In this document: positions 2,358 through 20,036 of the stretch, piece by piece
How the letters are laid out: every line of letters starts with the position of its first letter
How positions within the stretch are numbered: the stretch's first letter is position 1
Source: a virus
Length of the DNA: 31,554 bases
UHGV virus genome: UHGV-0071094
Reading direction: 5' to 3' (one strand)
The notes under the pieces: generated by a model
The model's database searches: none
The model's input: only the letters and a program-made list of their open reading frames with translations
What the model was told of the DNA's origin: nothing
Translations under genes and position numbers: made by a program

Positions 2358-2517
2358 ATAAATTTTTCAATGCCAGAGACGTTTGCCAGTTCATGCAGAA
2401 AATCGCTTTTGTAAGTTACAGTCCATGTATCTTGGTTTAGAACAAAGTGGTGTCAAAAAAGGTTTATGCCTTGGGAGGGAATAAGGGGCTGGGAAATTTA
2501 ACCCCTTATAGAGTTGT

Positions 2518-2738
2518 TATGCCGCAATAGCTTTAAATTTTTGAGCAATGACATAATCACTCCACCACTGCATGAGAACCATTCGTTCTGCGAGATACTC
2601 GGCACGATTATAGGCTGCAATTATTTAATCTTTCTTCGAGTGGGCAAGGGCCGCTTCTAAGACACCAGTCCTGAACTTACCAGATTCCTCTGTCGCTGTT
2701 CTCGCAATAGATCTCATTCTGTTAACCATAAGTTCACC
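2518..2738 (-). pseudogene. Remnant of a tyrosine integrase 3' end (last ~65 codons, internal TAA)
   Basis: Minus-strand translation gives ...SGKFRTGVLEAALAHSKKD*IIAAYNRAEYLAERMVLMQWWSDYVIAQKFKAIAA*, matching the C-terminal motif of P4-type integrases (compare int at 12083..13345). About 85% identical over ~170 bp to 6490..6660. Confidence 0.55.
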
Positions 2739-2856
2739 TCCTTAAACCGTTCGAATAATTACGGCTTATACTGCCTACTTATGCTAATATCTAAGAGAAG
2801 CCATTGTGGTTGTGTAAGTATACTTCTTGGTTTATTTCGACTATAGAAAACCATAC

Positions 2857-3753
2857 CTATGACTGGCTGTTTTCAGCAAGAGTCTTATCATCTAAAGAAT
2901 TTATTTTCGAAATTCTTTTTAACTCATTAAGATAATCAACCTCGTTTTCCAAGAACCAATGAAGAACTTTAGAGTTACCAAGTAATTTATTAATATATGA
3001 CTGTATTATAACGAATTTCAACATATCTGAGCCATACTCGGTTTGAAGCTTTTTTGTTTCTTCCGAAGTTGTTGCCATTTCTTGTTCCAGACGAAGTATG
3101 GTTTTTTTTATGTCCTTTTTATAGGGAGTGTTTTTCCCTTTATTTACTATCATTGATGCCGGTGTTGCATCCAAGATGCTCATTGCAAATTTTTTACTAT
3201 AATTATCAAAATTAATCATTGTACCGACTGCTTCAATTTGACGAATTGGTTTCATTTTCCTCAAAACATCAAATGTAGCCTTAGGTATAGGTTTATCAGA
3301 AAGTTTCGCAATCACACTTGGATCTATACCGTTCATTACATTAGCTTTATCTTTTATGGCATCAACAGATATGCCCAAAGCAGCACTAAGTTTTTCAATT
3401 GATACTTTTGCCAGAGACTTAATTATCATTCTATGTTCTTCAACTACATTTATATGATTCACTTGTTTGTTAGGAGTGAACGCATCATCTATGCTCGAAA
3501 GTATACATGGAGCTTTTTCTATGCCTAAATCTTTTAAAGCCTCAACCCGCAAATGGCCATCGAGTATCTTAATGGCATCTTTATCTTTGTCATAGAACAC
3601 TATTATTGGTTCAATAATACCTAAGCTTTCAATTGAGGTAACTATCTGATGATATTTATGACTTAGCTTTACATTTTCTAACAATTCCTTAGAGGGAATT
3701 AACTTGTTAGTTTCTAAATAAATAAAATTGTCGCCAAAACGTATCTGAATCAT
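2857..3753 (-). CDS. ParB/Srx-superfamily (ParB N-terminal domain-like) protein
   Basis: 298-aa ORF with ILDGHLRVEALKDLG motif typical of the ParB N-terminal nuclease-like domain; start overlaps the stop of the upstream gene by 4 nt. Confidence 0.6.
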   Translation of the reverse strand: MIQIRFGDNFIYLETNKLIPSKELLENVKLSHKYHQIVTSIESLGIIEPIIVFYDKDKDAIKILDGHLRVEALKDLGIEKAPCILSSIDDAFTPNKQVNHINVVEEHRMIIKSLAKVSIEKLSAALGISVDAIKDKANVMNGIDPSVIAKLSDKPIPKATFDVLRKMKPIRQIEAVGTMINFDNYSKKFAMSILDATPASMIVNKGKNTPYKKDIKKTILRLEQEMATTSEETKKLQTEYGSDMLKFVIIQSYINKLLGNSKVLHWFLENEVDYLNELKRISKINSLDDKTLAENSQS

Positions 3754-4646
3754 TTTGATGCCTCTTTGTTTATTGGATTGAGGATCTGAGATGGCAGTTC
3801 TGATAGATTCTCTTGTTCAAGTATATTTTGAAAGCTTTTATTCATCATTATGACGTTAAAAATCTCATTTACTATCAGCAAGTTAGTTTTAATAAATTTA
3901 GAGTTGTTATAAACAGATTTATGTTCAGCGATACTATTTTCATAAAGCTCAATTAACTCCTCAGCAGTCATTCTTTTTGATGGTTTGTGATAATAAAACC
4001 CGGCTGCTTTTGCACCTTTATTCCCAATTGTTCGCTGATTTAGAATGTGTTTTATCTTTATAATGTCCCGGCTTTTTATTAATTTTTTATCATATGCTTC
4101 GGTAAGAATATCTTGTGCTTCTTCAGTGTCACATCTTGCAAATTGTACTGCGAGATACAGAGGCAAATTCCCCCGTTCGACTGCAGAGAGAAGTTTATGC
4201 TCTCCCTTATCAAGAAGCATATTTATACTGCTCACCCAGTTCGATGAATACCCAGTAATCTCACTTATTTCGGAGTCTGAAAGTCCTCTGTTTTTCATAT
4301 CTTTTATTATCTGTAATAACTCATTGGAACGTGGTCTCCTCCTTGCAATGTTTTCAACCAAACTCATAACATAAGCATCTTCTTCTGATACATCTCTTAT
4401 AATTGCTGGAATAATGGTTTCACCTAATGCAACGAGCGCCTCTATTCTCCCTTGGCCACAAATTAAAGCATATTTGAAGTCGTCTTCATCAATCGCTCTT
4501 ACGCTTATAGGCTTGCTTAACCCTCTTTTTTTTATGCTTTCCTTAATTTCTTCATGCACTACCTTATTTCTAGTTCGCGGGTTAAGAAATTTTATTTTGG
4601 CAATTTCAATTTGGATTATTGGGAATTCATTTGATTCAGGCAGCAT
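3750..4646 (-). CDS. ParB/RepB-like protein (ParB N-terminal domain)
   Basis: 298-aa ORF; GQGRIEALVALG and VENIARRRPR motifs resemble ParB box regions; overlaps the upstream recombinase gene by 11 nt. Confidence 0.6.
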   Translation of the reverse strand: MLPESNEFPIIQIEIAKIKFLNPRTRNKVVHEEIKESIKKRGLSKPISVRAIDEDDFKYALICGQGRIEALVALGETIIPAIIRDVSEEDAYVMSLVENIARRRPRSNELLQIIKDMKNRGLSDSEISEITGYSSNWVSSINMLLDKGEHKLLSAVERGNLPLYLAVQFARCDTEEAQDILTEAYDKKLIKSRDIIKIKHILNQRTIGNKGAKAAGFYYHKPSKRMTAEELIELYENSIAEHKSVYNNSKFIKTNLLIVNEIFNVIMMNKSFQNILEQENLSELPSQILNPINKEASK

Positions 4647-6192
4647 ATAGTTCCCTCACTTTCATGCGAGTAATAATTTGTAGAAGTTTATCCAGATTAT
4701 CAAATCTATAGAGATCTAATCGAATGTTGTTTGTTTCCGTCATCCACATTTTACTATATTCGTTTTCAATCTTTGGTATGATATAAAAATCAAGTGGTGA
4801 AATATTTTGTGAATCCATTCGTATAACAATTGTTATGTCTGCTTTCTGTGAGTTATCAAACCGGACTTTCCATCTGAGTTTACCCGATTTCATATGTGTG
4901 CATTTAGTAATAAGGACGGAAATTAAAAACTCATCATTGATGTAAAGCATTGGTGCATATTTATATTCGTCTATATAGCAGTTGCTTTTTAAAATTTCCC
5001 CCTTAAAATCCTCAATTATGCCTGAGTAAAATGATCTTAGTGCTTCATTTATTTGGATATAGCTGTAATCATGTTCTGGCTTATAACCAATCAAAGTATA
5101 TGCTCTTAAAAGACCACCAAATCGGGTTCTGTAAACAGAAGATGAAGGGCCTGTATCATCTTCATCAATGATAAAGCCAGATAGTTTTCCATTAGATTCT
5201 AATTTTTGTTTTAGCTTTTCTAAAAGCTCTTCATTAGTCAAATGTACGGATCGGAGCTGAATTATTTCTTGAGCTTTATTATATTTTTTCTTTGAAATAA
5301 TGGGTTTATATGCCTTGTCGCATCTAACCCATTCATTTTTTGGGTTTTTTACAAGCCTACTTTTTAGTTTAGATGAGGTTTTGTTATATATGTTATTTCC
5401 AATATATTTTTCATTTGTCAAGATTTGATGTATTTTTGCACGAGTCCATAGTGTTCCATTTTCTGCAGGTATATTCTGTTCATTTAGTCTCTCAGCAATA
5501 ATGAATTCTGGCATGTTATCATCTATAAAGAGATCATAGATGCTATTTACAATTTTTATCTCATTTTTTGGTCCCGGAATTAATATCACCCTATCTGTTT
5601 GAATACTCTTTCTTTTGCGGAAGCCCAATATTTCTTTAGCTATGCCATTTTCATCTACTAAAAGACGTCTTAGCCCATAACCAGCCATTCCGCCTTGATG
5701 ATAACCAAGCTTTATTAAATTTGCTTGCCCTATAAATACCTTTTCTGATAAATTCCTGCTGTGATATGCAGCACTAGATCTTTTTATATTCAGTATAACA
5801 GAAGACTCTAAAGGGAAATCTTTAGTGGGAATAGGTTCGGAACAGTATATAAGATCTACACCGTTTCTCTCAAATAGAAAGGAATAATATGCAGCTTCAT
5901 CACTATTTTGAAAACGACCAAAACGGCTCACATCATAAAATAATACAGCCTGTATATCTATTTTCTTTTGTTCTACATCACTAAGTAACTGCTGCAAAGA
6001 ATGCCGGCCTATGATACTGACTCCGCTCTTACCTGCATCATCGTAGGTATAAGCGATTTCCATATTGTTCTTTTCAGCATAATCTTTGATATATTCGGAC
6101 TGATTATGTAAAGAATATTGCTGATGGTCGGTAGACATCCGCAAGTACTGTGCGACCCTAACTTTATGATTTTTATCATTTTCGCTAGCCAT
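4636..6192 (-). CDS. Large serine recombinase (resolvase N-terminal catalytic domain plus recombinase domain)
   Basis: 518-aa ORF; N-terminal VAQYLRMSTDHQ motif with catalytic Ser as in the resolvase/invertase domain; size and C-terminal extension typical of large serine recombinases. Confidence 0.8.
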   Translation of the reverse strand: MASENDKNHKVRVAQYLRMSTDHQQYSLHNQSEYIKDYAEKNNMEIAYTYDDAGKSGVSIIGRHSLQQLLSDVEQKKIDIQAVLFYDVSRFGRFQNSDEAAYYSFLFERNGVDLIYCSEPIPTKDFPLESSVILNIKRSSAAYHSRNLSEKVFIGQANLIKLGYHQGGMAGYGLRRLLVDENGIAKEILGFRKRKSIQTDRVILIPGPKNEIKIVNSIYDLFIDDNMPEFIIAERLNEQNIPAENGTLWTRAKIHQILTNEKYIGNNIYNKTSSKLKSRLVKNPKNEWVRCDKAYKPIISKKKYNKAQEIIQLRSVHLTNEELLEKLKQKLESNGKLSGFIIDEDDTGPSSSVYRTRFGGLLRAYTLIGYKPEHDYSYIQINEALRSFYSGIIEDFKGEILKSNCYIDEYKYAPMLYINDEFLISVLITKCTHMKSGKLRWKVRFDNSQKADITIVIRMDSQNISPLDFYIIPKIENEYSKMWMTETNNIRLDLYRFDNLDKLLQIITRMKVRELYAA

Positions 6193-6489
6193 GCACGAAA
6201 CCTCATGGATGATTCAATACAATGTAGATGATAAAATTGATCAATTTCTAACCAATTTCAACTGTTTTATCATTGATTAGAGCGAATTTAGTAAATCTTC
6301 GAGGTGTATGATAATCGAGAAGATATGTGAATTATGTAGCTGATATGACCAACAGCTTTCGGTATGTGGCCTCAAGTTACCCATCCGTAAATGGCTATGC
6401 TTAGTCAACATTTGTTAATATGTGTGATTATAATTCTTTAACTAAATCAAGATAGTTAACCCATCAGGGGAGAGTTATGCGGCAATAAC

Positions 6490-6955
6490 TTAGCATTTTT
6501 GAGACGCAACATAGTCACTCCACCATTGCATGAGAACCACCCGTTCTGTGGGATATTCTGCACGATTGTAGGCTGCAATTATTTCATCTTTCTTCGAGTG
6601 GGTAAGGGCGGCTTCGAAGACATCAGTCCTAAACTTTCCAGACTCATCAGCAGCATCGCATACCGTGAGCTACAAGCTTACCTCCGAACCCCATACGGAT
6701 TATGGCCGCATTAGCTGTTTGCTCATGCATATGGTTAAGAGGAGCCTTTATGCTTGGAAACACCCATTCACGATGCCCACTTATCACTTTCATTGACTCT
6801 AGGACTCGTAAAGCTTCTTTGCTTAGTGGAACTTTGTGAGGCTTCTTCATTTTCATAAACTCAGCCGGGATGTTCCACATACCAGTTTCTATATCAATAT
6901 CTGTCCATCTTGTGCGAACCGCTTCAGCGGGCGAACCCATGTTAGAAGTTGCCAC
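6490..6955 (-). pseudogene. Truncated, frameshifted tyrosine integrase (C-terminal catalytic half only)
   Basis: ORF 6647..6955 encodes an integrase catalytic-domain segment (WTDIDIETGMWNIPAEF...HREWVFPS...AHGMR). The C-terminal ...DESGKFRTDVFEAALTHSKKDEIIAAYNRAEYPTERVVLMQWWSDYVASQKC* continues in another frame (about 14-nt deletion relative to the copy at 2518..2738). The N-terminal ~220 codons are absent. Confidence 0.7.
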
Positions 6956-7377
6956 TCAATCAGTAGCCTTGTTTCTAACCGGATAGAAGCATTGTTTAGA
7001 GCAACTAGGAAGCGGGGGGATTACTGTTTCTGGTAAAGACTCTTTTGGTGGTGAACTGGACGCCTGGAATCAATATGAGAAAACTACTTAGTGCAACAGG
7101 AGCTGAATTAACTAATGGTGTAACATTACCTAGTGGTTGGCTTGTCAGTGGTATGAGCAAGGGAGCCAATAATCCTGAAAATTTAAGAGCGTTTGCTGTT
7201 TGTATGAGACAATGGCAGCATAAAAATTCTAGGATAAACTTTTGCCTTAATTAAAATGATAGGTGGTATATTTATAGGGGTTATCTTAGGAAGAATATTT
7301 TTAATGCTATTGATGAGAAGTATCGGACATGATTTAATGTTGTTTATGTTTTAGAATTCTCATATTCAGGCGGTTTC

Positions 7378-7743
7378 ATGATAAAACAGAAGTTAAAGAA
7401 TGACTGGGATATTCCTGCAATTCTTCGTCTTACTAAAGAACAAAAAAGGCTAAAATTGTCTGTTCAAGAAGTTGCAGACCTTCTGGACTTAAGCTCATAC
7501 TTTTTTGAGTTAGCTGTCGATGAGAAGGTGGATTTCAAATTTTATGACCTTCCTGAAAAGGTTAAAAAAAAGCTGCATTATGCAGGTTTTGATATTTTCT
7601 ATTTAATGACTGGTGAGTATTCAGGTAGTGAACCGGCATTGAAAATCGCCAGTTTTGAATATTCTATAAAGGATATGTCTCCTGAAGAAAAAAATGAAGT
7701 GAGAGTGTTGATAGAAAATATACCGATAACAAAACCACACTAA
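7378..7743 (+). CDS. Hypothetical 121-aa protein
   Basis: AT-rich ORF with no recognised domain; weak RBS; immediately upstream of a membrane protein gene. Confidence 0.4.
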   Translation: MIKQKLKNDWDIPAILRLTKEQKRLKLSVQEVADLLDLSSYFFELAVDEKVDFKFYDLPEKVKKKLHYAGFDIFYLMTGEYSGSEPALKIASFEYSIKDMSPEEKNEVRVLIENIPITKPH

Positions 7744-7812
7744 AATTACCTTTAATCCTATCATGTTATATTGGTAGGAAAAATTAGAACGTAATGATAT
7801 TGAGGTATAATC

Positions 7813-8436
7813 ATGGCCTTATCATCTGTAGCTATTGTGGCTGGTGTAGCTACTTTGGCAGCATCTCTTTTCAAAAATACAGAACTTCGGGTGATAGATA
7901 TCGTTGAGTTGTCAAAGCTCAGTGTTAACGATATTGAAAACAACCCTCAGTTAAAAATTGTCAAAAATGATATTAATGAACATATAACAGGCATTAAAGA
8001 CCCTGCATTTCATGAGGTTCTAATTGAAATTATGGCTAAGCATAATAAACCTGTTGGTTACTTCAAAAAAGTTGATGGTAGGTTGCAGTATGACCATTCC
8101 TATTATATTTCAATTAATAAGATGGGCTGGGGGCAATACATTAAAAAGTTAATTAATAATCCAAATGATTGGGTTGCAACTTTGATATATGTTATTTTTA
8201 TTATAACAATGTTCGGAATAGCAGTAGATCTTGATAAGGATCCACAAACATTTAATCAAGGTCTGTCTATATTTTTATCAGGTATGGGGGGATTAATGTT
8301 TAGCTTTTTATTAAAAGGCTTATCGGTTCAATGGAGAAATAGCTTTCATAATGTCAAGGATTTCGAATATAAAGAATTGTTTAAAGAGTACGCTAACAGT
8401 AAAATAGATGAAATCATATCATCAAACTCTAAATAA
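7813..8436 (+). CDS. Hypothetical membrane protein (207 aa)
   Basis: GAGG RBS 6-8 nt upstream; hydrophobic segments (ALSSVAIVAGVATLAASLF; WVATLIYVIFIITMFGIAV; LSIFLSGMGGLMFSFLL) suggest about 3 transmembrane helices. Confidence 0.5.
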   Translation: MALSSVAIVAGVATLAASLFKNTELRVIDIVELSKLSVNDIENNPQLKIVKNDINEHITGIKDPAFHEVLIEIMAKHNKPVGYFKKVDGRLQYDHSYYISINKMGWGQYIKKLINNPNDWVATLIYVIFIITMFGIAVDLDKDPQTFNQGLSIFLSGMGGLMFSFLLKGLSVQWRNSFHNVKDFEYKELFKEYANSKIDEIISSNSK

Positions 8437-8539
8437 TGATTCGGAATCATTTCTACCGTTGGCTGGGGTACATAAAAGCGTAATATTTTTATTCATTCTG
8501 ATAAAGCCAAGTCACATGGCTTGGCTTCAGATATATTGA

Positions 8540-8872
8540 TTAAGTATTATCTTTAATCGTTGTTGTTGTTCCGTTGGTTTTCACGGAAGCGATACCTTTT
8601 TCACGGGATTGTTTGGTCGAGTACATCTGGCTTGTACCGATCACATGATGATTAGCCGCCCGTAGGTTAAAATAGGACTTGCCGTTAGATGAGTCTTTCA
8701 GATCGTAGCGTTCATCAAGTGGGCTGTTTGCCTGAACTGATATAATGCCATTTTCTGCAGAACTCTTGGTTGTGTAAAGCTCGCTGGTGAGGATAATTTC
8801 TCCATTACCGGCTTTCAGAACAAATTTATACTGTTCATTACTGCTCTTATCCAATTCGAACCAACCAGCCAT
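8540..8872 (-). CDS. DUF1508 (YegP-like) tandem-repeat protein
   Basis: 110-aa ORF with two internal repeats (...YKFVLKAGNGEIILTSELYTTKSSAENGIISVQ / ...YFNLRAANHHVIGTSQMYSTKQSREKGIASVK) characteristic of the DUF1508/UPF0339 family. Confidence 0.65.
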   Translation of the reverse strand: MAGWFELDKSSNEQYKFVLKAGNGEIILTSELYTTKSSAENGIISVQANSPLDERYDLKDSSNGKSYFNLRAANHHVIGTSQMYSTKQSREKGIASVKTNGTTTTIKDNT

Positions 8873-9650
8873 ATTAACTCCTTGATAAAGTTGTGATTTT
8901 TACGGCCCAGTGATGAAGAACGAAGCGGGCAAGTTCAGTATGCCTGAAACAAAAATTGTTTCCAATATGTTATGTTTGTATCGGTAGCTGGGAACAAGAC
9001 TACACACTACGAAATGAGGCTTAGCTGTCGCCCACCAGTGTTGGCAGGTATGCCTTAGTGGGAGTCTTAGAGCGGAGGGTATCTTGAATCAATGTCTATT
9101 GCCATATTTACACGACACACGATATATTTTCTTTAGAGTCATATCTTAGGAAACAATAACGGCGACTTGAGCAAAAGTATCTAATATCAATAGATTTTCG
9201 TTAATTTAAAAAAATAGGTGCTCTCTCATAAAATCTGTAGGGTACTTGGTCGTGAATAAATTGCTGAGTTCATGTTGCGATGTCATTATTTGTCATCTTC
9301 CATGTCTCATAATTATCCTAACGTATAGGTTCAATGAAATTCCTTTATTCCTGTGTCTAATCTAATCAATCTAGCAATCTAACCAAACCTGTGTGTGGCG
9401 ATTTTACCTTGTTTAAATGTTCTAGGAATGCCTTTATCTTTTAGTATTAATTATATTAAAGGTTTACTTTCACGATGAGTATTTGCTGTTTCATCGGGAG
9501 GTTAAGATATTCATAATCTATCCTGACTGTAACGAAGATTAATCATTGATTTTATTTATATGTGAAAAAATCACTTTAAATATTGATTTTTTATGATTTA
9601 TGTAGTTTAATTTAAATGTATAGGTGATTTTTTCACATTGGAGAGGTGCT

Positions 9651-11009
9651 ATGTTAATCAGATTCTCAGTCGAAAACTACAAGTCATTCAGAGATAGAGT
9701 CGAGTTTTCAATGGTTTCGAGTAAAGTTCGAAGCCATCCATCACATGTCGTTAAGGCAACTTCTGCGAACGATATAAGTGTGTTAAAAGTTGGAGTTATC
9801 TATGGAGCTAATGCTTCTGGTAAATCCAACATCATCAAAGCAATGAAACATGCTCAAAATATGATTTTGAAAGGAAGTAAAGCTGGTACTAACCTTCCCT
9901 ATGCACCTTTCAGGCTTGATGATGATTTTGAAAAGAAACCCAGCAGATTTGAATTTGAAATTAAAATCAATGGCAAGAACTATGCATATGGATTCTCAGC
10001 TGATCAAAAATCCATTAAAGAAGAGTGGTTGTATGAAATAAACAAGAAGGATGACATTCTTATTTATGAAAGAAGTAATACAACTCACTTTAAATTTGAA
10101 AACATAAAATTTAAAAATGAAGAAGACGAACAATTCCTAAACTTTACAGCAAGAGGAACAAGCGAAAACTCTTTGTTTTTGTACGAATGTTTTGATAGGA
10201 ATGTTCTGAAGGATTTGAATTACATTGTACCAATTTCTGATGTTTTTAAATGGTTTAAAGCTAAGTTACAAATAGTTTTCCCGAATTCTAAATATAGAGA
10301 CCTAGATTTTGGATCTGCTTCTGATGAAAAAGAAGGAGAGCTTATAACTGATATTCTAAAAGATTTTGATACCGGTGTGTCAAAGTTAGTATTAAGAAAA
10401 GTTAGTTCATTTGATGATATAAAACTTCCTCCCAATTTCAAGGACCAGATCATAGAGGATCTTAAATCTAGTAAGGCTGTTGTAATTTCAGGGCCAAGAA
10501 ATAAACGATATAAAGTTGAACTGGGTGAAGATGGAGAAATAACGGTATTTCAATTGATGACGGCCCATAAAGATAAAAATGGTGATGATGTATATTTTGA
10601 ACTCAACCAGGAATCAGATGGTACACAAAGACTTTTTGATATTATACCTGGATTAGTCGAACTTATGTTGAAAGACAAAGTTTATATAATTGATGAAATT
10701 GATCGTAGTTTGCATCCAAAGATTACAAAAACATTTATGAAATTATTCTCTATGAAAACTGTCGGTAAAGACAGTCAACTGATAGTCACCACTCATGAAA
10801 CCGGTCTTTTAGATTTTGAACTTATACGAAGAGATGAGGTTTGGTTTACTGAAAAAAATAAAAGTGGAATTTCGAGAATTTATTCACTCGAAGAATTCCA
10901 GCCTAGGTTTGATAAAGATATACGTAAAGGTTACTTAGTGGGGCGTTTTGGTGGAATTCCTAAAATAAAGAATATATTATCAAACGTTGAAGATTTTCAG
11001 AAGGACTAA
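9651..11009 (+). CDS. ABC/SMC-like AAA ATPase (OLD/AbiLi-like ATPase component)
   Basis: Walker A GANASGKSN; Walker B-like VYIIDEIDRSLH; GGAGAGG RBS before the ATG at 9651 (ORF track start 9624 is less likely); stop 2 bp before the next gene. Confidence 0.7.
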   Translation: MLIRFSVENYKSFRDRVEFSMVSSKVRSHPSHVVKATSANDISVLKVGVIYGANASGKSNIIKAMKHAQNMILKGSKAGTNLPYAPFRLDDDFEKKPSRFEFEIKINGKNYAYGFSADQKSIKEEWLYEINKKDDILIYERSNTTHFKFENIKFKNEEDEQFLNFTARGTSENSLFLYECFDRNVLKDLNYIVPISDVFKWFKAKLQIVFPNSKYRDLDFGSASDEKEGELITDILKDFDTGVSKLVLRKVSSFDDIKLPPNFKDQIIEDLKSSKAVVISGPRNKRYKVELGEDGEITVFQLMTAHKDKNGDDVYFELNQESDGTQRLFDIIPGLVELMLKDKVYIIDEIDRSLHPKITKTFMKLFSMKTVGKDSQLIVTTHETGLLDFELIRRDEVWFTEKNKSGISRIYSLEEFQPRFDKDIRKGYLVGRFGGIPKIKNILSNVEDFQKD

Positions 11010-11011
11010 AA

Positions 11012-11668
11012 ATGCCTCGTGAAAGAAGAGAGTTTGACAGAAGAAGTGGGGTAAAAGACCCGTCTTTAATTGTAATTGCTTGTGAAGGAGAGAAAACAGA
11101 GCAGGACTATTTCAATAGTATATCGGAACTATGTGATGAGTTAGGATCACGTTTACAACTTAAAGTTCTCCCGCCGCGAGAAGAGGGGCATAGTGCGCCT
11201 AGACATGTTTTAGACCAAATGGATAAATATAAAAAAGAATTTGGAATTAAAGTGAATGATGAATTATGTCTGGTAATCGATAGGGATAAACAATCATGGA
11301 CAGAGGCTACTATAAGTGAAGTTGCTCAGTTTTGTCATGCCAAACAATATATTCTGGCTTTAAGTAATCCATGTTTTGAATTATGGCTTCTTATACACCA
11401 TTATGATGTAATGCTCCTCGGTGAGGATGAAAAAAGAAGTATTTTAAGAAATAAAAATGGGTATATGAAAAGCAAACTACGGGATGTTATTGGACAATAT
11501 AACCCAAGTTCTATTAATATTCATGATTTCTGGGGGGTAACTGAAATCGCGATTGACAGAGCTAAACGTTTAGATGTTAATCCAGCTGAGAGATGGCCTA
11601 ATGAAATAGGAAGTCGTGTGTATATAATCATGGAGAAAATACGTCAGTCAATTAATAATCAATTATAA
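11012..11668 (+). CDS. RloB-like / Toprim-domain protein (putative nuclease partner of the ATPase)
   Basis: 218-aa ORF; N-terminal IVIACEGEKTE and downstream LVIDRDKQ give a Toprim-like E...DxD signature; translationally coupled to the ATPase gene. Confidence 0.6.
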   Translation: MPRERREFDRRSGVKDPSLIVIACEGEKTEQDYFNSISELCDELGSRLQLKVLPPREEGHSAPRHVLDQMDKYKKEFGIKVNDELCLVIDRDKQSWTEATISEVAQFCHAKQYILALSNPCFELWLLIHHYDVMLLGEDEKRSILRNKNGYMKSKLRDVIGQYNPSSINIHDFWGVTEIAIDRAKRLDVNPAERWPNEIGSRVYIIMEKIRQSINNQL

Positions 11669-12082
11669 TTATCCTATGTATTCCTTCGCATTTATTCCAT
11701 GCTTTAATAAGTGTATAAGGTTTTAGCTAAGTTGATTTTTTTATTGACTTGGCTTTTTTGTGTCTGGTTTGATGGTCTAGTTATGAGTGTAGGTATTTTT
11801 CGATTAAAGCGTATATCTTGATTTTTATATTAAGAATCATTCCTGATTTCTACTGAAGCCAAGAGAAAATTATTAATATATTTCATAGGATGATTTTGAA
11901 TTAGGATCTAAACAATAAGATATGGTTCACGTAAATTTATTTTGCTGGAGTGATAACTCGATTGGGTGTTTATTGAGGGGGGGCAAAAATATTGGTTTGA
12001 CATTATTATTACTACCTTTTTTTGTTTCTTTGCTCAGTGTTTACGTTGCTTTTTAGCGTGCAAAAAATAGAGAACTATTATA

Positions 12083-13345
12083 CTAATTCATTTTCTTTAT
12101 TCTCTGGGCGAATTCAAACGGTGTAATGTGTTCTTTTCTGTTGGCATTAAGGTAGTCAGCCCACCATTGTAACATGAGTTTTCTCTCTTCGAGATGTTCC
12201 GCTTTGTGGATATATGCTGCCCGAACCGAGTTACGCTCTTGGTGGCTCATTTGACGTTCTACGGCGTCTCTTGACCATAACCCAGATTCGATTAATGCAC
12301 TACAAGCCATAGTTCGAAAACCGTGACCACAAACTTCAGCTTTCGTGTCGTAACCCATGGTGCGAAGAGCCTTGTTAACAGTGTTTTCGCTGATTGGTTT
12401 GTCATCGCGACTAAAACCAATGAACATAAGATCCTTTTCTCCACTTATAGCTTGGAGCCTTTTAAATAATACTACAGCCTGCTTACTTAGCGGCACAAGA
12501 TGAGGGGTTTTCATTTTTGAGCCCCTATTTGAATACTTAACCCCCTCCAATTCTCGTCTTTCTGCAGGGATTGTCCATAAGGAGTTTTTGAAATTCACCT
12601 CAGACCAACGAGCGAATCTAAGTTCACTTGAACGGATGAAAGTCAGTAGAGTTAATTGAACTGCTATTTGAGTGATACCTTTCCCTTTATAGGCATCAAT
12701 CCGTTTGAGAAGCTCAGGAAGTCGTTCGAGGGGAAGGGCAGGGCGGTGATTACTCTTGGCAGTGGTTACAGCGCCTGCGAGGTCGTAAGCTGGGTTTTGG
12801 TCAATCAAAGCATTGTGAACAGCATACCGCATGATGGCAGTGATTCTTTGTTGTAAACGGGCAGCAAGTTCAAGATGTCCAGTTTCCTCTGCTTTTTTCA
12901 GAGGAACAAGTAAATCACGAGTTTTAAGCTCACTAATGTTCCGCTTACCGATAACAGGAAATACATGAGTGATCAGGCTGTTTAATACGGTAGTTCTGTG
13001 ACTGTCTGACCAGGTTCTGTTGCTTGAGTGCCAGTCTCTGGCAACAGTTTCAAAAATGAGTAAGCCTTTCTCTTCAATCTTTTCTGTTTTTCGCTTTTCG
13101 CCAGGGTCAACATTGTTGGCAATGAGTTGCCTTGCTTCTTCTCTTCTACGACGAGCTTCTGCTAAAGACACTTCGGGATAAACACCAAGCGCCAACATTT
13201 TTTGCTTACCAGAAAAGCGATATTGAAGCCGCCAGTATTTTGAACCCGTAGGGTGAACCAGGAGATGCATACCATCCCCATCTGTTAACTTGACGGGCTT
13301 TTCAGTAGGTTTCGCATTTCTGACTTTTACCTCAGTTAGTGCCAT
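12083..13345 (-). CDS. P4/CP4-57-type tyrosine integrase (Arm-DNA-binding DUF4102 plus catalytic domain)
   Basis: 420-aa ORF; N-terminus MALTEVKVRNAKP...KLTDGDGMHLLV...GSKYWRLQYRF typical of the P4-like integrase arm-binding domain; C-terminal HGFRTMA...AAY...LMLQWWADYL catalytic motifs. Sits at the AT-rich/GC-normal boundary. Confidence 0.9.
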   Translation of the reverse strand: MALTEVKVRNAKPTEKPVKLTDGDGMHLLVHPTGSKYWRLQYRFSGKQKMLALGVYPEVSLAEARRRREEARQLIANNVDPGEKRKTEKIEEKGLLIFETVARDWHSSNRTWSDSHRTTVLNSLITHVFPVIGKRNISELKTRDLLVPLKKAEETGHLELAARLQQRITAIMRYAVHNALIDQNPAYDLAGAVTTAKSNHRPALPLERLPELLKRIDAYKGKGITQIAVQLTLLTFIRSSELRFARWSEVNFKNSLWTIPAERRELEGVKYSNRGSKMKTPHLVPLSKQAVVLFKRLQAISGEKDLMFIGFSRDDKPISENTVNKALRTMGYDTKAEVCGHGFRTMACSALIESGLWSRDAVERQMSHQERNSVRAAYIHKAEHLEERKLMLQWWADYLNANRKEHITPFEFAQRIKKMN

Positions 13346-13520
13346 TGTGACCTCCTGATGATGGTATCTGCATTATCGAACTTACAATACCAACAGTTAT
13401 ACCAACAAAACAAGCTGGATGTCCGTATATCCCAACAGTCCTTGGTAGACCATGGTTAAAGTGTACTTCATTGAAATGATTGGGAAAAATAGACTTTGAT
13501 ATACTTCGGTAGACAGGGTT

Positions 13521-13536
13521 CTGGCGTCCCCTGCAG
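13521..13536 (-). other. Candidate prophage attR core (tRNA 3'-end-like sequence)
   Basis: Minus strand reads CTGCAGGGGACgCCA, resembling the acceptor-stem 3' end plus CCA of tRNA-Arg (argW as I recall it: ...CCTGCAGGGGACACCA); located between the excisionase and the next integrase, where an attR is expected. Confidence 0.4.
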
Positions 13537-13609
13537 ACATCTACTTGAGGCAGCAGGGGATTGATTAGAATGGTATTTTTTAGATGTGAGAAATATTTTA
13601 CCCGCTATT

Positions 13610-13810
13610 TTACCCATTGGCGCGGCTTAAGAGCTTATTTTTGAATTCACAATGGTCACGATATAACCATCTTGCTCGCCCGTGGATAACTTTGGCTTTA
13701 GGCAGGTCTCCGGACTTAATCCGGTCATAGATGAAGGTTTTACCGAAGCCAGTATCGGCCATGATGAATTTCAAATCAACCAGGGAATCAGGCTGTAGTT
13801 CGTGTTGCAT
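13610..13810 (-). CDS. torI: AlpA/TorI-family excisionase (winged-helix recombination directionality factor)
   Basis: 66-aa ORF (MQHELQPDSLVDLKFIMADTGFGKTFIYDRIKSGDLPKAKVIHGRARWLYRDH...) with AlpA-like HTH; position at the prophage end opposite the intS-like integrase matches the KplE1 layout. Gene symbol by analogy, not verified. Confidence 0.75.
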   Translation of the reverse strand: MQHELQPDSLVDLKFIMADTGFGKTFIYDRIKSGDLPKAKVIHGRARWLYRDHCEFKNKLLSRANG

Positions 13811-13828
13811 GAGTGCTATCTCCGAATA

Positions 13829-13844
13829 GGGAATCGAACCTGCA
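13829..13844 (-). other. tRNA T-arm-like 16-mer (TTGCAGGTTCGATTCC) immediately upstream of the excisionase gene
   Basis: Minus-strand sequence matches the T-stem/T-loop (GGTTCGATTCC) region of a tRNA and diverges where the acceptor 3' strand would begin. Confidence 0.45.
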
Positions 13845-13852
13845 AATCAGGC

Positions 13853-13876
13853 AAGAAAAAACCGCCATCAGGCGGC
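13853..13876 (-). terminator. Rho-independent terminator-like hairpin with U-run (minus strand)
   Basis: GCCGCC-TGAT-GGCGG stem-loop followed by TTTTTTC on the minus strand, overlapping the stop of the small ORF upstream. Confidence 0.4.
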
Positions 13877-14035
13877 TTGGTGTTCTTTCAGTTCTTCAAT
13901 TCGAATATTGGTTATGTCTGCATGTGCTATCTGCGCCCATATCATCCAGTGGTCATAGCAGTCATTGATGTTCTCTGCTTCGATAACTCTGTTGAATGGT
14001 TCTCCATTCCATTCACCTGTGACTCGGAAGTACAT
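13868..14035 (-). CDS. Small hypothetical phage protein (55 aa)
   Basis: Minus-strand ORF MYFRVTGEWNGEPFNRVIEAENINDCYDHWMIWAQIAHADITNIRIEELKEHQAA preceded by a GGAGA RBS; below the ORF-track size cut-off; the overlapping plus-strand ORF 13802..14050 is judged spurious. Confidence 0.35.
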   Translation of the reverse strand: MYFRVTGEWNGEPFNRVIEAENINDCYDHWMIWAQIAHADITNIRIEELKEHQAA

Positions 14036-14222
14036 TTATCATCTCCATAAAACAAAACTCGCCGTAGCGAGTTCAGATAAAAGAAATCCCCGCGAATGCG
14101 AGGATTGTTAGTTGCGCTCTGCTGCTGCCTTAGCCATTACCATATCCACCAAACTTCACCAGACATGATTCTCGCAATCACTATCATCACCAAAGTGATA
14201 ATCACAACTTTAACTGGCGGCA

Positions 14223-14951
14223 TCATTCACCATCCTGCTGCGGTGCTGCTGGCAGTGGCATCCAGTGGGTAATACTACCTGGATATAAACTCTTTGCTGG
14301 CCCCCAGTAGCCATCTGTATTAACACGCATAACCTCACAGCCATCAAAACCATCAGTTACAAGAACGTATTCATAAGGTTCCGGCATCCTTTCGCTTACC
14401 GGAATCCAACTATCCGGAGTTCCCGGAGAGTTGCCATTTACATCGAAGTTTGGCTCTGCGTCCTGAACCAGGAGGATGTAACCATTCTTGGCTGTATCAA
14501 GTTCTAACGCCTCGGTGACGGTGCCGAAATAGCGATTGCCTAAATCAGCATCACAAGTGCTTACATCAATGGAAACTTCCATGCCCTCGATTAATTCTGG
14601 CAAGTTGTAAGTTTGGCTTACAGGTTCGGCTTCCAGTTCTGCTATGCGCTTTTTTGCTGCTTCCAGCTCGCCAAGCAGCGCCAAGACGGTAGCCGGATTG
14701 GCTGCGGCGATGAATTCAGCATTGGCCTGCTGTTCCATTTGGAAATCTTCATCGAAACCGCTTTCAGGATGCGCTCCTTCAATTCTGCAAATGGGAATAT
14801 ATCCAGCAGCCTCGCGATGAATTAGCGCATCATCACAATCAAATCGGCTCTCTCCATATTCGAGCGACCACTCACCACACGTTGCTTTTTCTGCCGCTTC
14901 ACGCAGTGCCTGGTAATTAATTTCGCTCACTGTTTGCCTCCTTTGCGCCAC
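14223..14951 (-). CDS. Ead/Ea22-like protein with C-terminal DUF551 domain
   Basis: 242-aa ORF; C-terminal ...[35 protein letters not shown]...THWMPLP resembles DUF551; typical lambdoid early-left accessory gene. Confidence 0.7.
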
Positions 14952-15550
14952 ATCGCATTCAGATATTTGTTGTCATTAACAGAACCGAAACTCTTTCTTT
15001 TAAGCAATTCCTCTCTCGATGGCATTGGCTTTACGCGTTGGCGAATAATCATTTCTGCCGGAAGAATGCCGGGATTGTATGCAAGTCCTCTCATGGTAAA
15101 TTCCTCAGTCATTACTGATAGCGCCATAGCGTGAGCGGTAATTACGCAGGCGCGGGTCAATTTCAGGGAAGTGGGTATATCTGCATCTTTCGCATCATCA
15201 ATGCCGAACAAACCATTGAGGCAATACTTGCGTGCATAAGAGCTTGTAGCTCCAGTAACTTGTGCAGAATCCATTCCTTTCTTGCTTTCTTCCTCTCGTG
15301 CAAGAGCGGTTGCCGTATGACTGTTTTCGCCATCGGTAATAGTTGCCGTGGCTTTCACATAATACCGATCACCAATCAACACAACTTCATCGCTGATTGA
15401 TAAAAACAGGCCATTCAGTAGCGGCTTAACGCCTTCAAGAATATCTTCGCAGCTTCTGTATTTATATTTACCGAATGAGTTGTACTGATTTTTTGGCGCG
15501 TTCAGATTCTCCTGAATGGCAGCCAGTCTTGCGTAAAATTCTTTGCTCAT
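14927..15550 (-). CDS. erf: ERF-family single-strand annealing protein (P22 Erf-like)
   Basis: Translation from the internal Met ([45 protein letters not shown]...) closely resembles phage P22 Erf as I recall it; the ORF-track start 15580 probably over-extends. Confidence 0.8.
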
Positions 15551-15651
15551 ATGATTGTTCTCAGAATGGACATGGCCCAAGGAAATAACGCTGATTTAAT
15601 ACTTCGACTCGGGACAAGTTAAGGCATACCCGCATTCCTTCGCGGTCACCA

Positions 15652-15810
15652 TTATGGCGATACCAGAGAGCTTTCTGCGTGTACATGCGTCTCTGTAACT
15701 TGCTCTCCTTCACTGTGGTTGCAAGTGACATGAATATCTCCTTCGTTACCGATTAATTCTTTCATCTGACGAATGAATTCTTCGTCTGACCAGTTATCTG
15801 TAAAACTCAT
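15652..15810 (-). CDS. Small phage protein (52 aa) in the Arf/early-left position
   Basis: Minus-strand ORF MSFTDNWSDEEFIRQMKELIGNEGDIHVTCNHSEGEQVTETHVHAESSLVSP; its ATG overlaps the stop of the upstream small gene (ATGA). Confidence 0.4.
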   Translation of the reverse strand: MSFTDNWSDEEFIRQMKELIGNEGDIHVTCNHSEGEQVTETHVHAESSLVSP

Positions 15811-15959
15811 TTCCTGCGATACCATGGAAGGTTGATAGCTAATTTCATCTCTTTATTTGCTTCAAGCCACATTTTGGAATCACCAATAAATCTGGCTATT
15901 ACTGCTTTGTTTTGTGCTGCTCGAAGCATCTGGTGATTGATGGCTATTTCATTGCGCAT
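15807..15959 (-). CDS. Kil-like small protein (50 aa)
   Basis: Minus-strand ORF MRNEIAINHQMLRAAQNKAVIARFIGDSKMWLEANKEMKLAINLPWYRRK; the ...RFIGDSKMW... segment resembles lambdoid Kil as recalled; assignment tentative. Confidence 0.35.
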   Translation of the reverse strand: MRNEIAINHQMLRAAQNKAVIARFIGDSKMWLEANKEMKLAINLPWYRRK

Positions 15960-16078
15960 AACGCCTCCAGTTGTTTCTTTGCTGCTCTGATTAATTGTTT
16001 AACTCGGCGTGATAATTCAGATTCGTGCGGGTAGAAAGCGGACATGACGCCGCTACCCGCGAGCTGAAAGTGCATCAT
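15944..16078 (-). CDS. cIII-like small protein (44 aa)
   Basis: Internal start of ORF 15944..16183 gives MMHFQLAGSGVMSAFYPHESELSRRVKQLIRAAKKQLEALCAMK, resembling lambda CIII (..AG....ESxL.R....L); AAGGAG RBS upstream. Confidence 0.4.
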   Translation of the reverse strand: MMHFQLAGSGVMSAFYPHESELSRRVKQLIRAAKKQLEALCAMK

Positions 16079-16619
16079 GGGTAACTCCTTATATTTGATT
16101 GCATAACGAAAACGCCTCGAGTGAAGCGTTATTGGTATGCGGTAAAGCCGATGGAAGAATGGTTTCTTCTCGCAGGTAAGCATGATGCTTGCTGTTCTGG
16201 AATACGGAATCGAAGACGATGAAATGGCTGAATTGACTAAGCGGCTTGCCGATTACCTGACAAAAGAAAAAGCCCCGAAGAACGGCGAATTCTTCGAGGC
16301 CTGATGTAGAAAGACTGGATCAATCCACAGGAGTAATTATGACAAAACGTCGTAAGAAATACCAGGAAAAAGAAGAGATTCGACACCCTGATTCACCTGA
16401 GGGATTAGTGGTAGCCGCAGCAAATAACAGGGCGTTCGCAGAGCGCCTTGTTGGTGTTTACAGACTAGCCAAAGCAGGAGTGAAACATGGGCGTCGTTAA
16501 GTTAGCTGATTACAGGCATATCCAAACCGTATGCCTGTTGGTAGTGGTAACCAGTTGGCGAAGTGGAACGGTTGGAATTACTTCCACCGAAAGGAACCTT
16601 GCGATAACGGGAGCGAATA

Positions 16620-18038
16620 ATGCCGATTCAGCAACTTCCGCTTATGAAAGGTGTCGGCAAAGACTTTCGAAACGCCGACTATATCGACTATCTGCCAGTG
16701 AATATGTTGGCTACACCCAAAGAAATACTCAACAGCAGCGGATATCTTCGTTCATTCCCGGGCATTGCCAAACGCTCTGATGTGAACGGTGCATCTCGCG
16801 GCGTCGAGTACAACATGGCGCAGAATGCTGTTTATCGTGTGTGTGGTGGCAAGCTGTACAAAGGAGAAAGTGAAGTCGGTGACGTTGCCGGAAGTGGTCG
16901 TGTATCAATGGCGCATGGTCGGACATCACAGGCAGTAGGCGTTAATGGTCAACTGGTCGAGTATCGCTATGATGGCACGGTTAAAACCGTCTCAAACTGG
17001 CCTACAGACAGCGGATTCACGCAGTATGAGTTAGGTTCAGTCCGCGACATTACGCGCTTACGTGGGCGTTATGCGTGGTCAAAAGACGGCACTGATTCAT
17101 GGTTTATCACTGACCTTGAAGACGAATCGCATCCTGACCGCTACAGCGCACAATATCGTGCTGAGTCTCAGCCTGACGGCATCATCGGCATCGGAACATG
17201 GCGAGACTTCATCGTCTGCTTTGGTTCATCGACGATTGAATATTTCTCCCTGACTGGCGCAACAACTGTTGGTGCTGCTTTGTATGTCGCACAGCCATCA
17301 CTGATGGTGCAGAAAGGCATTGCCGGAACTTACTGCAAAACGCCATTCGCTGATTCGTATGCGTTTATCAGCAATCCGGCAACGGGTGCGCCGTCTGTAT
17401 ACATCATCGGATCCGGTCAGGTGTCACCAATCGCCAGCGCGAGCATTGAGAAAATTCTCCGCTCCTACACTGCTGATGAACTGGCTGATGGTGTGATGGA
17501 GTCTCTGCGATTTGATGCGCATGAGCTGCTGATTATCCATCTTCCGCGCCATGTTCTGGTGTACGACGCATCTTCAAGCGCCAATGGTCCGCAATGGTGT
17601 GTACTGAAAACAGGCCTGTATGACGATGTGTATCGCGCTATCGACTTCATTTACGAAGGCAATCAGATAACGTGCGGCGATAAGCTGGAATCCGTGACCG
17701 GGAAATTGCAATTCGATATCAGCAGCCAGTACGACAAGCAACAGGAACATCTGCTGTTTACTCCACTCTTCAAAGCAGATAACGCCAGAGTTTTCGACCT
17801 TGAGGTTGAATCGTCAACTGGCGTTGCGCAGTACGCTGACCGCCTGTTCCTCTCTGCAACCACTGACGGCATCAATTACGGGCGTGAGCAGATGATTGAG
17901 CAGAATGAACCGTTCGTTTACGACAAACGCGTTTTGTGGAAGAAAGTAGGGCGCATCAGGAAAAACATTGGCTTCAAATTGCGCGTTATCACTAAGTCAC
18001 CTGTCACTCTGTCTGGCTGCCAGATAAGGATTGAGTAA
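16620..18038 (+). CDS. P22 gp10-like tail/head-completion protein
   Basis: 472-aa ORF; same length as P22 gp10 and N-terminus [46 protein letters not shown] closely resembles it. Confidence 0.85.
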
Positions 18039-18886
18039 TGGCTGATTCGAATCTTAATGTGCCGGTAATCATTCAGGCTACACGACTCGACACATCAGTC
18101 CTTCCGCGTAATATCTTCTCGCAGTCGTATCTGCTTTACGTTATCGCACAGGGAACTGATGTTGGTAACGTGGCTAACAAAGCCAACGAGGCCGGACAGG
18201 GCGCTTATGATGCACAGGTCAGGAACGATGAGCAGGATGTGATTCTCGCTGACCATGAGCAGCGAATTTCTGCTGCGGAAGCAACGCTTGTTAATCATGA
18301 GGAGCGAATCAGCCAGGCAGAATCAACTCTTCAGGAACATGAAACGCGAATCGCTCAGAATGAAAGCGATATTGCGTCGCTTGATACCAGAGTTCAGTCG
18401 CTGGAATCGCAGGTTTCAGACCATGAATCGCGCATTGATGCTCTGGAGTATGCCACTACTCGCAAGAAGTCAGAGGTTGTTTACTCTGGCGTATCAGTAA
18501 CCATTCCGACAGCGCCGACCAACCTTGTTAGCCTGCTGAAAACGCTCACGCCGTCATCAGGATCGTTGGCACCATTCTTCGACACCGTTAACAACAAGAT
18601 GGTTGTGTTCAACGAGAACAAAACCTTGTTCTTCAAGCTGTCGATCGTCGGGACGTGGCCCAGCGGAACCGCCAACAGGTCAATGCAGCTAACATTTTCC
18701 GGTTCTGTTCCTGACACACTGGTAAGCAGTCGCAACTCGGCGACAACAACCGACAACATCCTGTTAGCTACGTTCTTCAGCGTGGATAAAGACGGCTTTC
18801 TTGCCACAAATGGCAGTACGTTAACCATTCAGTCAAATGGTGCGGCGTTTACTGCCACAACCATCAAGATAATCGCGGAGCAGTGA
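18038..18886 (+). CDS. Tail needle protein (gp26-like) with C-terminal knob, Sf6-type
   Basis: ATG overlaps the gp10 stop (TAATG); N-terminus [36 protein letters not shown] conserved with P22 gp26; heptad-like coiled-coil middle; 282 aa with a ~130-aa C-terminal extension, as in Sf6-type needles. Confidence 0.8.
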
Positions 18887-19341
18887 TGATTCAGTTCAAA
18901 CAAACGCGAAACATCGACCTGATCGAAGCAGTCGGAAATCACCCTGACATTATCGCCGGTAGCAACAACGGTGATGGATACGACTACAAGCCTGAATGCC
19001 GTTACTTTGAGGTTAACGTGCACGGTCAGTTTGGCGGCATTGTTTACTATCAGGAAATTCAGCCGCTTACATTCGATTGCCACGCCATGTACCTGCCAGA
19101 GGTTCGCGGCTTCAGCAAGGAAATCGGGATGGCGTTCTGGCAATACATTCTGACTAACACCACCGTTCAGTGCGTCACATCGTTCGCCGCACGCAAATTC
19201 CGCCACGGGCAGATTTACTGCGCAATGATTGGCCTTAAGCGTGTCGGAACCATCAAGAAATACTTCAAAGGCGTGGATGACGTGACTTTTTACAGCGCCA
19301 CACGCGAAGAACTAATCGACTTCCTGAATCACGGGAGATAG
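18883..19341 (+). CDS. P22 gp14-like virion assembly protein
   Basis: 152-aa ORF in the conserved position between the needle and gp7 genes; overlapping start/stop. Confidence 0.65.
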
Positions 19342-19343
19342 CC

Positions 19344-20036
19344 ATGTTATATGCATTTAAGCTGGGCAGAAAACTGCGCGGCGAGGAACCTTGGTGCCCT
19401 GAAAAAGGCGGGAAAGGTGGTAGCTCTGATAAAAGCGCAAAGTATGCAGCAGAAGCCCAGAAGTATGCCGCAGACCTGCAAAATCAGCAGTGGCAGACGA
19501 TCATGAAAAACCTTGCTCCGTTCACGCCTCTTGCGGAGCAGTATGTTAACCAGCTTCAGAACCTTTCCAGTTTAGAAGGTCAGGGGCAGGCACTTAATCA
19601 GTATTACAACTCTCAGCAGTATAAAGACCTTGCAGGTCAGGCTCGTTACCAGAGTCTTGCTGCTGCGGAGGCTACGGGAGGACTTGGTTCGACAGCCACA
19701 AGCAATCAACTGGCTACGATCGCGCCGACTCTCGGTCAGTCGTGGTTATCAAACCAGATGAGCAATTACAACAATCTGGCAAACGTTGGGCTTGGTGCTC
19801 TGCAAGGTCAGGCAAACGCCGGGCAGACGTACGCCAACAACATGAGCAGCATTGCACAGCAAAGCGCAGCTCTTGCCGCTGCTAATGCCAACAAACCATC
19901 AAGTCTTCAGACAGCAATTAGTGGCGGAACGTCTGGTGCGATTGCCGGTGCAGGTCTTGCCAGCCTTTTGGGAACATCAACACCTTGGGGCGCTGGCATT
20001 GGTGCTGGTATCGGATTGCTTGGCTCGTTGTTTTAA
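19344..20036 (+). CDS. Ejection protein, P22 gp7-like
   Basis: 230-aa ORF, Gln/Ala/Gly-rich with a glycine-rich hydrophobic C-terminus; gene order and size match P22 gene 7. Confidence 0.75.
   Translation: MLYAFKLGRKLRGEEPWCPEKGGKGGSSDKSAKYAAEAQKYAADLQNQQWQTIMKNLAPFTPLAEQYVNQLQNLSSLEGQGQALNQYYNSQQYKDLAGQARYQSLAAAEATGGLGSTATSNQLATIAPTLGQSWLSNQMSNYNNLANVGLGALQGQANAGQTYANNMSSIAQQSAALAAANANKPSSLQTAISGGTSGAIAGAGLASLLGTSTPWGAGIGAGIGLLGSLF

Follow-up and report, generated by a model that had tools for sequence, protein, structure and literature searches.

The window analysed here is the whole 31,554-nucleotide (nt) stretch of the viral genome UHGV-0071094, and its positions 9651-11668 carry two adjacent genes that had been predicted from the sequence to form an anti-phage system of the AbiL type. 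The first gene (abiLi-like, 9651..11009, + strand) encodes an ATP-binding cassette (ABC) ATPase of 452 amino acids (aa), of the AAA_21/AAA_15, Rad50/SMC-head-like type. The second gene (abiLii-like, 11012..11668, + strand) encodes a 218-aa RloB-family protein, which is predicted to be a Toprim-like metal-dependent nuclease effector. The ATPase stop codon TAA (11007-11009) is followed by two bases, 'aa', and by the RloB start codon ATG at 11012; the two open reading frames (ORFs) lie in different reading frames and are translationally coupled across this 2-bp gap, as the original prediction had described. Judged from sequence profiles, the pair belongs to the AbiL family (ABC ATPase plus RloB), of which it is typical, and PADLOC recognises it directly; its architecture class, an ABC ATPase with a Toprim-like nuclease, has already been catalogued. 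The gene layout corresponds to that of AbiL in PADLOC, since the genes are adjacent, co-directional and bicistronic, and the ATPase gene comes first.

The ATPase and the RloB-family protein

In Pfam, the ATPase matched AAA_21 (E 6.7e-43) and AAA_15 (E 1.7e-12), and its best match in PADLOC was the AbiLi profile PDLC02335 (E 1.9e-90, 301 bits). The next-best PADLOC profile was AriA (1.2e-39), and the PtuA and GajA profiles were also far below AbiLi. The NCBIfam PtuA model gave 28 bits against a cutoff of 500, and no NCBIfam model was above its cutoff for the ATPase or RloB. A best match to DNA-repair proteins, which the original prediction had named as counting against it, was absent: the top profiles were those of defence ATPases, and the match to SMC_N/RecF was weak (E 6e-07) and under Pfam's own cutoff. 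The expected motifs GANASGKSN (residues 52-60) and IIDEID (residues 346-351) are both in place, the former containing Walker A (residues 52-59, nt 9804-9827) and the latter lying within the Walker B/D-loop segment (residues 344-351, nt 10680-10703). A signature-like ESDGTQR (residues 321-327, nt 10611-10631) and an H-loop TTHE (residues 380-383, nt 10788-10799) were also located.

Conservation of the ATPase motifs was read in two sets of homologues, of 45 and 70 sequences. K58 of Walker A, E349 of Walker B and H382 of the H-loop were identical in 70/70 pairs, at a mean identity of ~39%, and the Walker B residue D348 was identical in 69/70, the lone exception being an alignment gap. The D-loop residue D351 was an aspartate in 60/70 homologues, while G52, N54, G57 and K58 of Walker A and the whole of ESDGTQR were invariant or nearly so. 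The homologous ATPases are 440-460 aa long and uniformly unfused. The AlphaFold2 (AF2) model of the ATPase had a predicted local distance difference test (pLDDT) score of 84. Foldseek placed Rad50 heads, the PtuA proteins of Septu and of retrons, and Thermus OLD on top (E ~1e-10 to 1e-9) among 137 matches at E <= 1e-3; a sequence search of the PDB gave nothing meaningful. Judged from its motifs, this Rad50/SMC-like ABC ATPase is catalytically intact.

A conserved tail was found near the C-terminus of the ATPase (residues 418-441, FDKDIRKGYLVGRFGGIP..., 10902..10973, + strand). Y428, R432 and P437 were identical in 70/70 homologues and G431 in 69/70, although the tail has a pLDDT < 50 in the AF2 monomer model. 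Because of this near-complete conservation despite the low pLDDT, the tail is a candidate docking peptide, which may serve the binding of RloB or oligomerisation.

The start of the ATPase gene deserves a comment, since the RefSeq start in strain AR_0128 corresponds to window position 9711 and gives a 432-aa protein (WP_219832070.1). The start at 9651 was favoured because the ATG is preceded by a Shine-Dalgarno sequence (GGAGAGG, 9640-9646), because the AAA_15 profile aligned from its position 1 on the 452-aa form, because M1, L2 and R4 of the N-terminal M-L-x-R are nearly invariant among the homologues, and because the exact 452-aa protein represents a protein cluster of 229 members. Window positions 9651-9711 equal 20352-20412 of the AR_0128 stretch, and the shorter RefSeq form loses the conserved N-terminal strand MLIRFSVENYKSF. 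The 432-aa start thus looks like a mis-annotation.

The 218-aa protein matched Pfam RloB (PF13707, E 6.3e-31) over the whole model (1-195 of 195), and its best PADLOC match was the AbiLii profile PDLC02337 (E 3.2e-23). AAA_21, AAA_15, RloB and the PADLOC AbiL profiles, all proposed beforehand for a profile search, were therefore matched, and the split pair was recovered as AbiL-like; DUF4435, which had also been proposed, was not matched. The predicted CEGEKTE...VIDRD signature is present as residues 24-30 (C-E25-G-E-K-T-E30, nt 11081-11101) and 88-92 (V-I-D90-R-D92, nt 11273-11287), and it is followed by S118-N-P-C-F-E123-L-W (nt 11363-11386). The description of this partner as short or compact did not hold, since its homologues are 205-231 aa long, uniformly unfused, and a length of 218 aa is the norm of the family.

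The invariant residues of RloB were E25, Y33, S61, D90, D92, S118, N119, F122, E123, W125 and H129, and among them E25, D90, D92, E123 and H129 were identical in 70/70 pairs. The motifs round D83-D92 and S118-W125 were the patterns by which the RloB loci had been collected, so that the invariance there is partly a matter of selection; E25 is independent of these patterns, D90 and D92 lie inside them, and both motifs were also invariant in a separate, independently gathered RloB alignment. The strand formed by residues 19-24 runs into E25, and the strand 84-90 ends in D90-x-D92. An alpha/beta core with a glutamate where strand 1 ends and a DxD where strand 3 ends makes up the layout of a Toprim domain, and this layout was found in RloB, which on the evidence of these residues carries a Toprim-like acidic triad (E25, D90 and D92).

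Comparisons of RloB with known structures and nucleases gave no significant match. Foldseek of the RloB model against the PDB returned nothing at E <= 1e-3, and PDB searches with the sequence and with an RloB profile gave nothing meaningful, integrin I-domains alone appearing at E ~0.04. For the comparison with P2 Old, a search with the C-terminal region gave 4 fragmentary matches and a scan of viral contigs gave only 9 close relatives of Old; the profile comparison with RloB reached a probability of 0.2% with the single sequence and 0.8% (E 0.069) with a 10-sequence profile, neither of which is significant. Neither PADLOC nor Pfam matched RloB to AriB or DUF4435, although E values up to 10 were allowed.

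Pairing across bacteria and comparison with known systems

A scan for RloB loci, with one genome per species, returned 80 loci. These were distributed over Bacteroidota, Chloroflexota, Cyanobacteria, Planctomycetota, Pseudomonadota, Bacillota, Spirochaetota, Verrucomicrobiota, Armatimonadota and Acidobacteriota, together with one candidate-phylum bacterium. An AbiLi-like ATPase (32-46% identity) was encoded directly upstream on the same strand in 78/80 loci, that is, in 78/78 of those that could be scored, as the upstream DNA of the other two was merely 15 and 50 bases long. The intergenic distance was between -26 and +33 nt in 75/77 cases, with extremes of -50 and +117, and -4 was the commonest value. 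Over 70 pairs, the divergence of the ATPase was correlated with that of RloB (Mantel r 0.856; 0/999 permutations as high), and the mean distances of the two proteins were nearly equal (0.62 and 0.61). A third conserved gene was sought among 114 flanking ORFs at 29 distant loci, where 174 Pfam families were encountered and none occurred more than 3 times; no enrichment of defence islands was seen round these 29 distant pairs. Closer to home, the Dickeya orthologues are 76-79% identical and have the same sizes (452 + 218 aa). Because the pairing is constant, the two proteins diverge together and no third conserved gene was found, the pair is a self-contained and horizontally mobile two-gene cassette, whose members are obligate partners and co-evolve.

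Cassettes of the AbiL type are carried by islands, small plasmids and a P2-like phage. In the P2-like Klebsiella phage ST13-OXA48phi12.1 (NC_049453), positions 2198-4184 hold a PADLOC AbiLi/AbiLii pair (1.4e-101 and 1.6e-29) flanked on one side by the replication endonuclease and on the other by the portal gene, at the position where P2 itself has tin and old, genes of lysogenic conversion. In Endozoicomonas montiporae, a 57%-identical ATPase and RloB pair with a 17-nt self-overlap lies directly downstream of McrB/McrC (2907-8666 of the retrieved stretch), and together with McrBC it seems to form a small defence island next to mutS. Pairs of about 29% identity are the sole annotated cargo besides rop on 3.9-kb plasmids of E. 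coli and Salmonella. The plasmid NZ_AP027671 (3,916 bp) and ~10 similar ones are small mobilizable ColE1/Rop-type enterobacterial carriers of such a pair, and one Klebsiella plasmid record names the gene abiLI. In total, AbiLi-type ATPases were found on 181 plasmids, many of which are enterobacterial and 3.5-5.3 kb long, including those of Klebsiella and Enterobacter. A tblastn search with the ATPase and RloB against 72,556 plasmids returned no Lactococcus record.

The closest named system is AbiL of Lactococcus lactis (pND861; PADLOC), which like the window pair is an ATPase-first two-gene operon with a ~450-aa AAA_21 ATPase and an RloB-family partner, and whose PADLOC profiles are the top matches for both proteins of the window. 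The window pair differs in having a Gram-negative host and in being carried by a chromosomal island at argW instead of a plasmid, and its identity to the lactococcal prototype is probably low. It has been reported that lactococcal AbiL was found through a phage-resistance phenotype and causes abortive infection in Lactococcus (PMC13064643). AbiL has been grouped with the ABC-plus-TOPRIM systems (PMC13064643; PMC11464382), and in particular Burman et al. (2024) placed it with PARIS, OLD and Gabija, with the ATPases of AbiL and PARIS in one AAA15/21 tree (PMC11464382).

PARIS (AriA/AriB) of E. coli B185 is likewise split into an ABC ATPase and a small effector of the N-terminal Toprim type. In that system the AriA hexamer frees the Toprim nuclease AriB on binding of Ocr, and AriB, whose active site includes E26, cuts tRNA-Lys (PMC11464382). 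The position of the catalytic glutamate is nearly shared (E26 in AriB, E25 in RloB), but the window effector belongs to RloB (PF13707) and AriB to DUF4435, and the window ATPase fits the AbiLi profile far better than that of AriA. Since RloB has no detectable sequence similarity to AriB/DUF4435, the analogy with PARIS was taken as one of architecture only.

Other related systems depart from the window pair in one component or in their setting. In the OLD nucleases P2 Old (class 1) and Gabija GajA (class 2), ATPase and Toprim are fused in one chain, whereas they are separate genes in the window. Septu and the retron-associated PtuAB share the two-gene logic of ATPase plus nuclease, and the fold of PtuA is close to that of the window ATPase (Foldseek E ~1e-10), but the effector PtuB is an HNH nuclease and not an RloB/Toprim-like protein. 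The same pairing of AAA with an RloB-family protein is seen in TOPRIM_OLD(D44):AAA(D29) of C. algidicarnis (NetFlax) and in Campylobacter RloAB, neither of which is known to defend against phage. The latter sits inside type I restriction-modification (R-M) loci, while the window pair has no R-M genes nearby. Data on the toxicity of relatives are also available: AbiLii of F. nucleatum is toxic in E. coli (PMC3985639), and the RloB-node toxin of C. algidicarnis is neutralised by its AAA ATPase (PMC10440598).

The argW island and the rest of the window

The locus is DNA of the E. coli chromosome. The pair was found in 44/5,426 complete E. coli genomes, and all copies are at least 99% identical. 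To its right lies an intact P4-type tyrosine integrase gene (12083..13345, - strand) with Arm-DNA-bind_3, Phage_int_M and Phage_integrase domains, which adjoins tRNA-Arg in AR_0128; it belongs to the island and not to the defence module. This integrase was counted in 44 E. coli genomes, as many as the pair, with heavy overlap between the strains listed. A defence hotspot with variable cargo behind a common integrase was considered and rejected, since the integrase is present in just 44 genomes, a number equal to that of the pair. As the counts of integrase and pair match and their strains overlap, the pair is fixed cargo of one island at argW rather than the occupant of a variable slot. The gene order in AR_0128 is Hxs genes, TIGR04141, ParB, ParB, recombinase, and insertion sequence (IS) elements with integrase remnants, followed by two hypothetical genes, YegP, ATPase, RloB, integrase, tRNA-Arg (argW) and yfdC; the pair already bears the RefSeq labels "AAA family ATPase" and "RloB family protein".

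The operon had been said to sit in an AT-rich island bounded by an integrase, which agrees with the integrase just described and with a GC content of 31-34% across 9500-12000, compared with 42-52% further right in the window and ~50% in neighbouring core-like sequence. The 778-bp upstream intergenic region (8873..9650, + strand) is very AT-rich and is presumed to hold the operon promoter. It contains no ORF of 40 aa or more, and a promoter scan of it gave sites (e.g. 9099-9128) no commoner than in shuffled sequence; the region could have a regulatory or silencing (H-NS-type) function. An Rfam search of 6000-14200 gave zero matches. On the other side of the operon, a consensus scan picked out a terminator-like hairpin with a T-run (11725..11764, + strand), 57 bp past the RloB stop. 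It possibly marks the operon end, but this is suggestive only, the scan having found 2 sites against 1.5 in shuffles.

The att core, at the junction of the island with a prophage remnant, is TGGCGTCCCCTGCAG (13522..13536, + strand), 15 nt that duplicate the tRNA-Arg (argW) 3' end. It occurs once in the window, where 0 copies were expected by chance; a second att repeat for the far end of the island was not found in the window. The window is identical with AR_0128 as far as 13536, a stretch that takes in the first 15 nt of the tRNA 3' end; beyond this point torI, Ead/Ea22, ERF and P22/Sf6-type tail genes are found. Because the identity stops within the tRNA 3' end and phage genes follow from there, the island and argW are separated by a tandemly integrated prophage remnant. 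This lambdoid P22/Sf6-like remnant occupies 13522-31554. Its genes torI, Ead/Ea22 and ERF lie at 13610-15580 and its structural genes (phage stabilisation protein, tail needle) start from 16620, and the distance of merely ~1 kb between the early and the structural genes suggests a large internal deletion.

To the left of the operon, a hypothetical gene of 121 aa, another of 207 aa (both + strand) and a YegP/DUF1508 gene of 110 aa (- strand) fill 7378-8872. They accompany the AbiL pair in E. coli, and none is conserved beside distant pairs; the 121-aa and 207-aa proteins had no match in Pfam or PADLOC. A 102-aa tyrosine integrase fragment (6650-6955, - strand; Phage_integrase E 4.2e-10) marks the boundary to an older module of the island, and the equivalent stretch of AR_0128 contains further integrase pseudogenes and IS1 and IS3 insertions. 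In view of the fragment at 6650-6955, the argW island is a mosaic, made up of elements that accreted and decayed one after another. Positions 2857-6192 (- strand) hold overlapping, co-directional genes for a large serine recombinase (518 aa) and two ParB_N/RepB-like proteins (298 aa each), which may form a mobile-element or partition-like module; for one of the ParB-like proteins, PADLOC gave a weak match (5.4e-07) with a type II methyltransferase profile, which its ParB_N domain probably explains. At 18-2357 (+ strand), an HxsA-like His-Xaa-Ser repeat gene is followed by a gene for a 535-aa DUF6119/TIGR04141 'sporadically distributed' protein (E 6e-127), both proteins being without a PADLOC match. 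In AR_0128, a full hxsDBCA radical-SAM cluster lies upstream of the HxsA-like and TIGR04141 genes.

Function of the operon and alternative explanations

By analogy with the systems compared above, 9651-11668 is best read as a self-contained AbiL-family anti-phage operon, in which an ATPase-controlled RloB nuclease would bring about abortive infection; the probability of this reading was put at about three in four. The mechanism proposed for it draws on the PARIS analogy and on the toxicity and neutralisation data for relatives. In an uninfected cell, the ATPase, probably as an oligomer, would bind RloB and keep it inactive, possibly by means of its conserved C-terminal tail (residues 418-441). 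On infection, a phage-derived cue would be sensed by the ATPase in an ATP-dependent manner, and RloB would then be freed or activated. Using metal ions bound at the E25/D90/D92 site, RloB would cut nucleic acid (tRNA/RNA or DNA), and this cleavage would halt growth and abort the infection.

Several points weigh against this reading. The distant relatives of the pair are mostly outside recognisable defence islands, and no published experiment on the E. coli AbiL or a close relative was found in the literature searched. RloB is not detectably akin to AriB/DUF4435 in sequence, which leaves the PARIS analogy an architectural one. It was also reported that AbiLi of F. nucleatum failed to neutralise AbiLii, a result in conflict with simple sequestration (PMC3985639). 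Finally, the AT content is very high by E. coli standards and no promoter was picked out, so that the operon may be silenced.

A more far-reaching proposal can be made, although we regard it as doubtful. The window pair would belong to a distinct, pan-bacterial AbiL clade that is too far from the lactococcal prototype to be detected by BLAST, the invariant but disordered tail with Y428-x-x-G-R-F-G-x-I-P437 would act as a latch on RloB, and RloB, after its release, would be an RNA/tRNA Toprim nuclease whose evolution was independent of AriB. If this were true, the trigger and the target of the clade would differ from those of every characterised ABC-plus-Toprim system.

It is unlikely that the pair is mainly an addiction module of the toxin-antitoxin type, in which RloB as toxin and the ATPase as antitoxin stabilise the island or plasmid with no dedicated anti-phage role. 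The 3.9-kb plasmids on which the pair is the sole annotated cargo besides rop would suit such a module, as would the many enterobacterial plasmids of 3.5-5.3 kb with AbiLi-type ATPases and the one-to-one co-occurrence of pair and island integrase in E. coli; however, other pairs lie beside McrBC and, in a P2-like phage, at the lysogenic-conversion position of old/tin, and lactococcal AbiL was discovered by its phage-resistance phenotype (PMC13064643). NetFlax does class AAA:RloB-node pairs as toxin-antitoxin systems, with neutralisation validated (PMC10440598), but toxin-antitoxin behaviour and defence are compatible, as PARIS illustrates. Moreover, a 452-aa ATPase with all its catalytic motifs kept would be costly for a mere antitoxin.

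Quite improbable is the explanation that the operon is intact yet silent or non-functional in E. coli, that is, recently acquired AT-rich DNA which is repressed and confers no phenotype. The GC content of 31-34% against ~50% in neighbouring core-like sequence and a promoter signal not above chance would agree with repression, but the good Shine-Dalgarno sequence and the tight coupling of the genes speak against silent cargo. The identity of at least 99% among all 44 E. coli copies suggests a recent spread, too young for decay to have set in, and the surrounding island is a mosaic that contains integrase remnants, joined by IS elements in other strains; yet neither ORF is disrupted, every catalytic residue is present, and the Dickeya orthologues, 76-79% identical at the same 452 + 218 aa, point to purifying selection in Enterobacterales. 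Hardly tenable, and largely refuted by context, is the reading of the pair as an accessory to a type I R-M locus, in the manner of RloAB, or as a housekeeping RecF/SbcC-like repair ATPase with its nuclease. Although the RloB family was named after Campylobacter genes that lie within type I R-M loci (PMC10440598) and the ATPase has a Rad50-like fold and a weak SMC_N/RecF match, no hsd or other R-M genes were found in the island of the window or of AR_0128, R-M families were not enriched near the 29 distant pairs, the locus is accessory (44/5,426 genomes) and island-borne, and the best profiles of the ATPase are those of defence ATPases rather than repair proteins.

For the AbiL-family reading, the residues singled out as functional candidates are K58 and E349 of the ATPase, E25, D90, D92, E123 and H129 of RloB, and the tail 418-441. 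AbiL has been known since 1999. As an intact and self-contained AbiL found naturally in E. coli, the pair would offer a practical model of the AbiL mechanism, open to the coliphage panels and the genetics that were used to solve PARIS.

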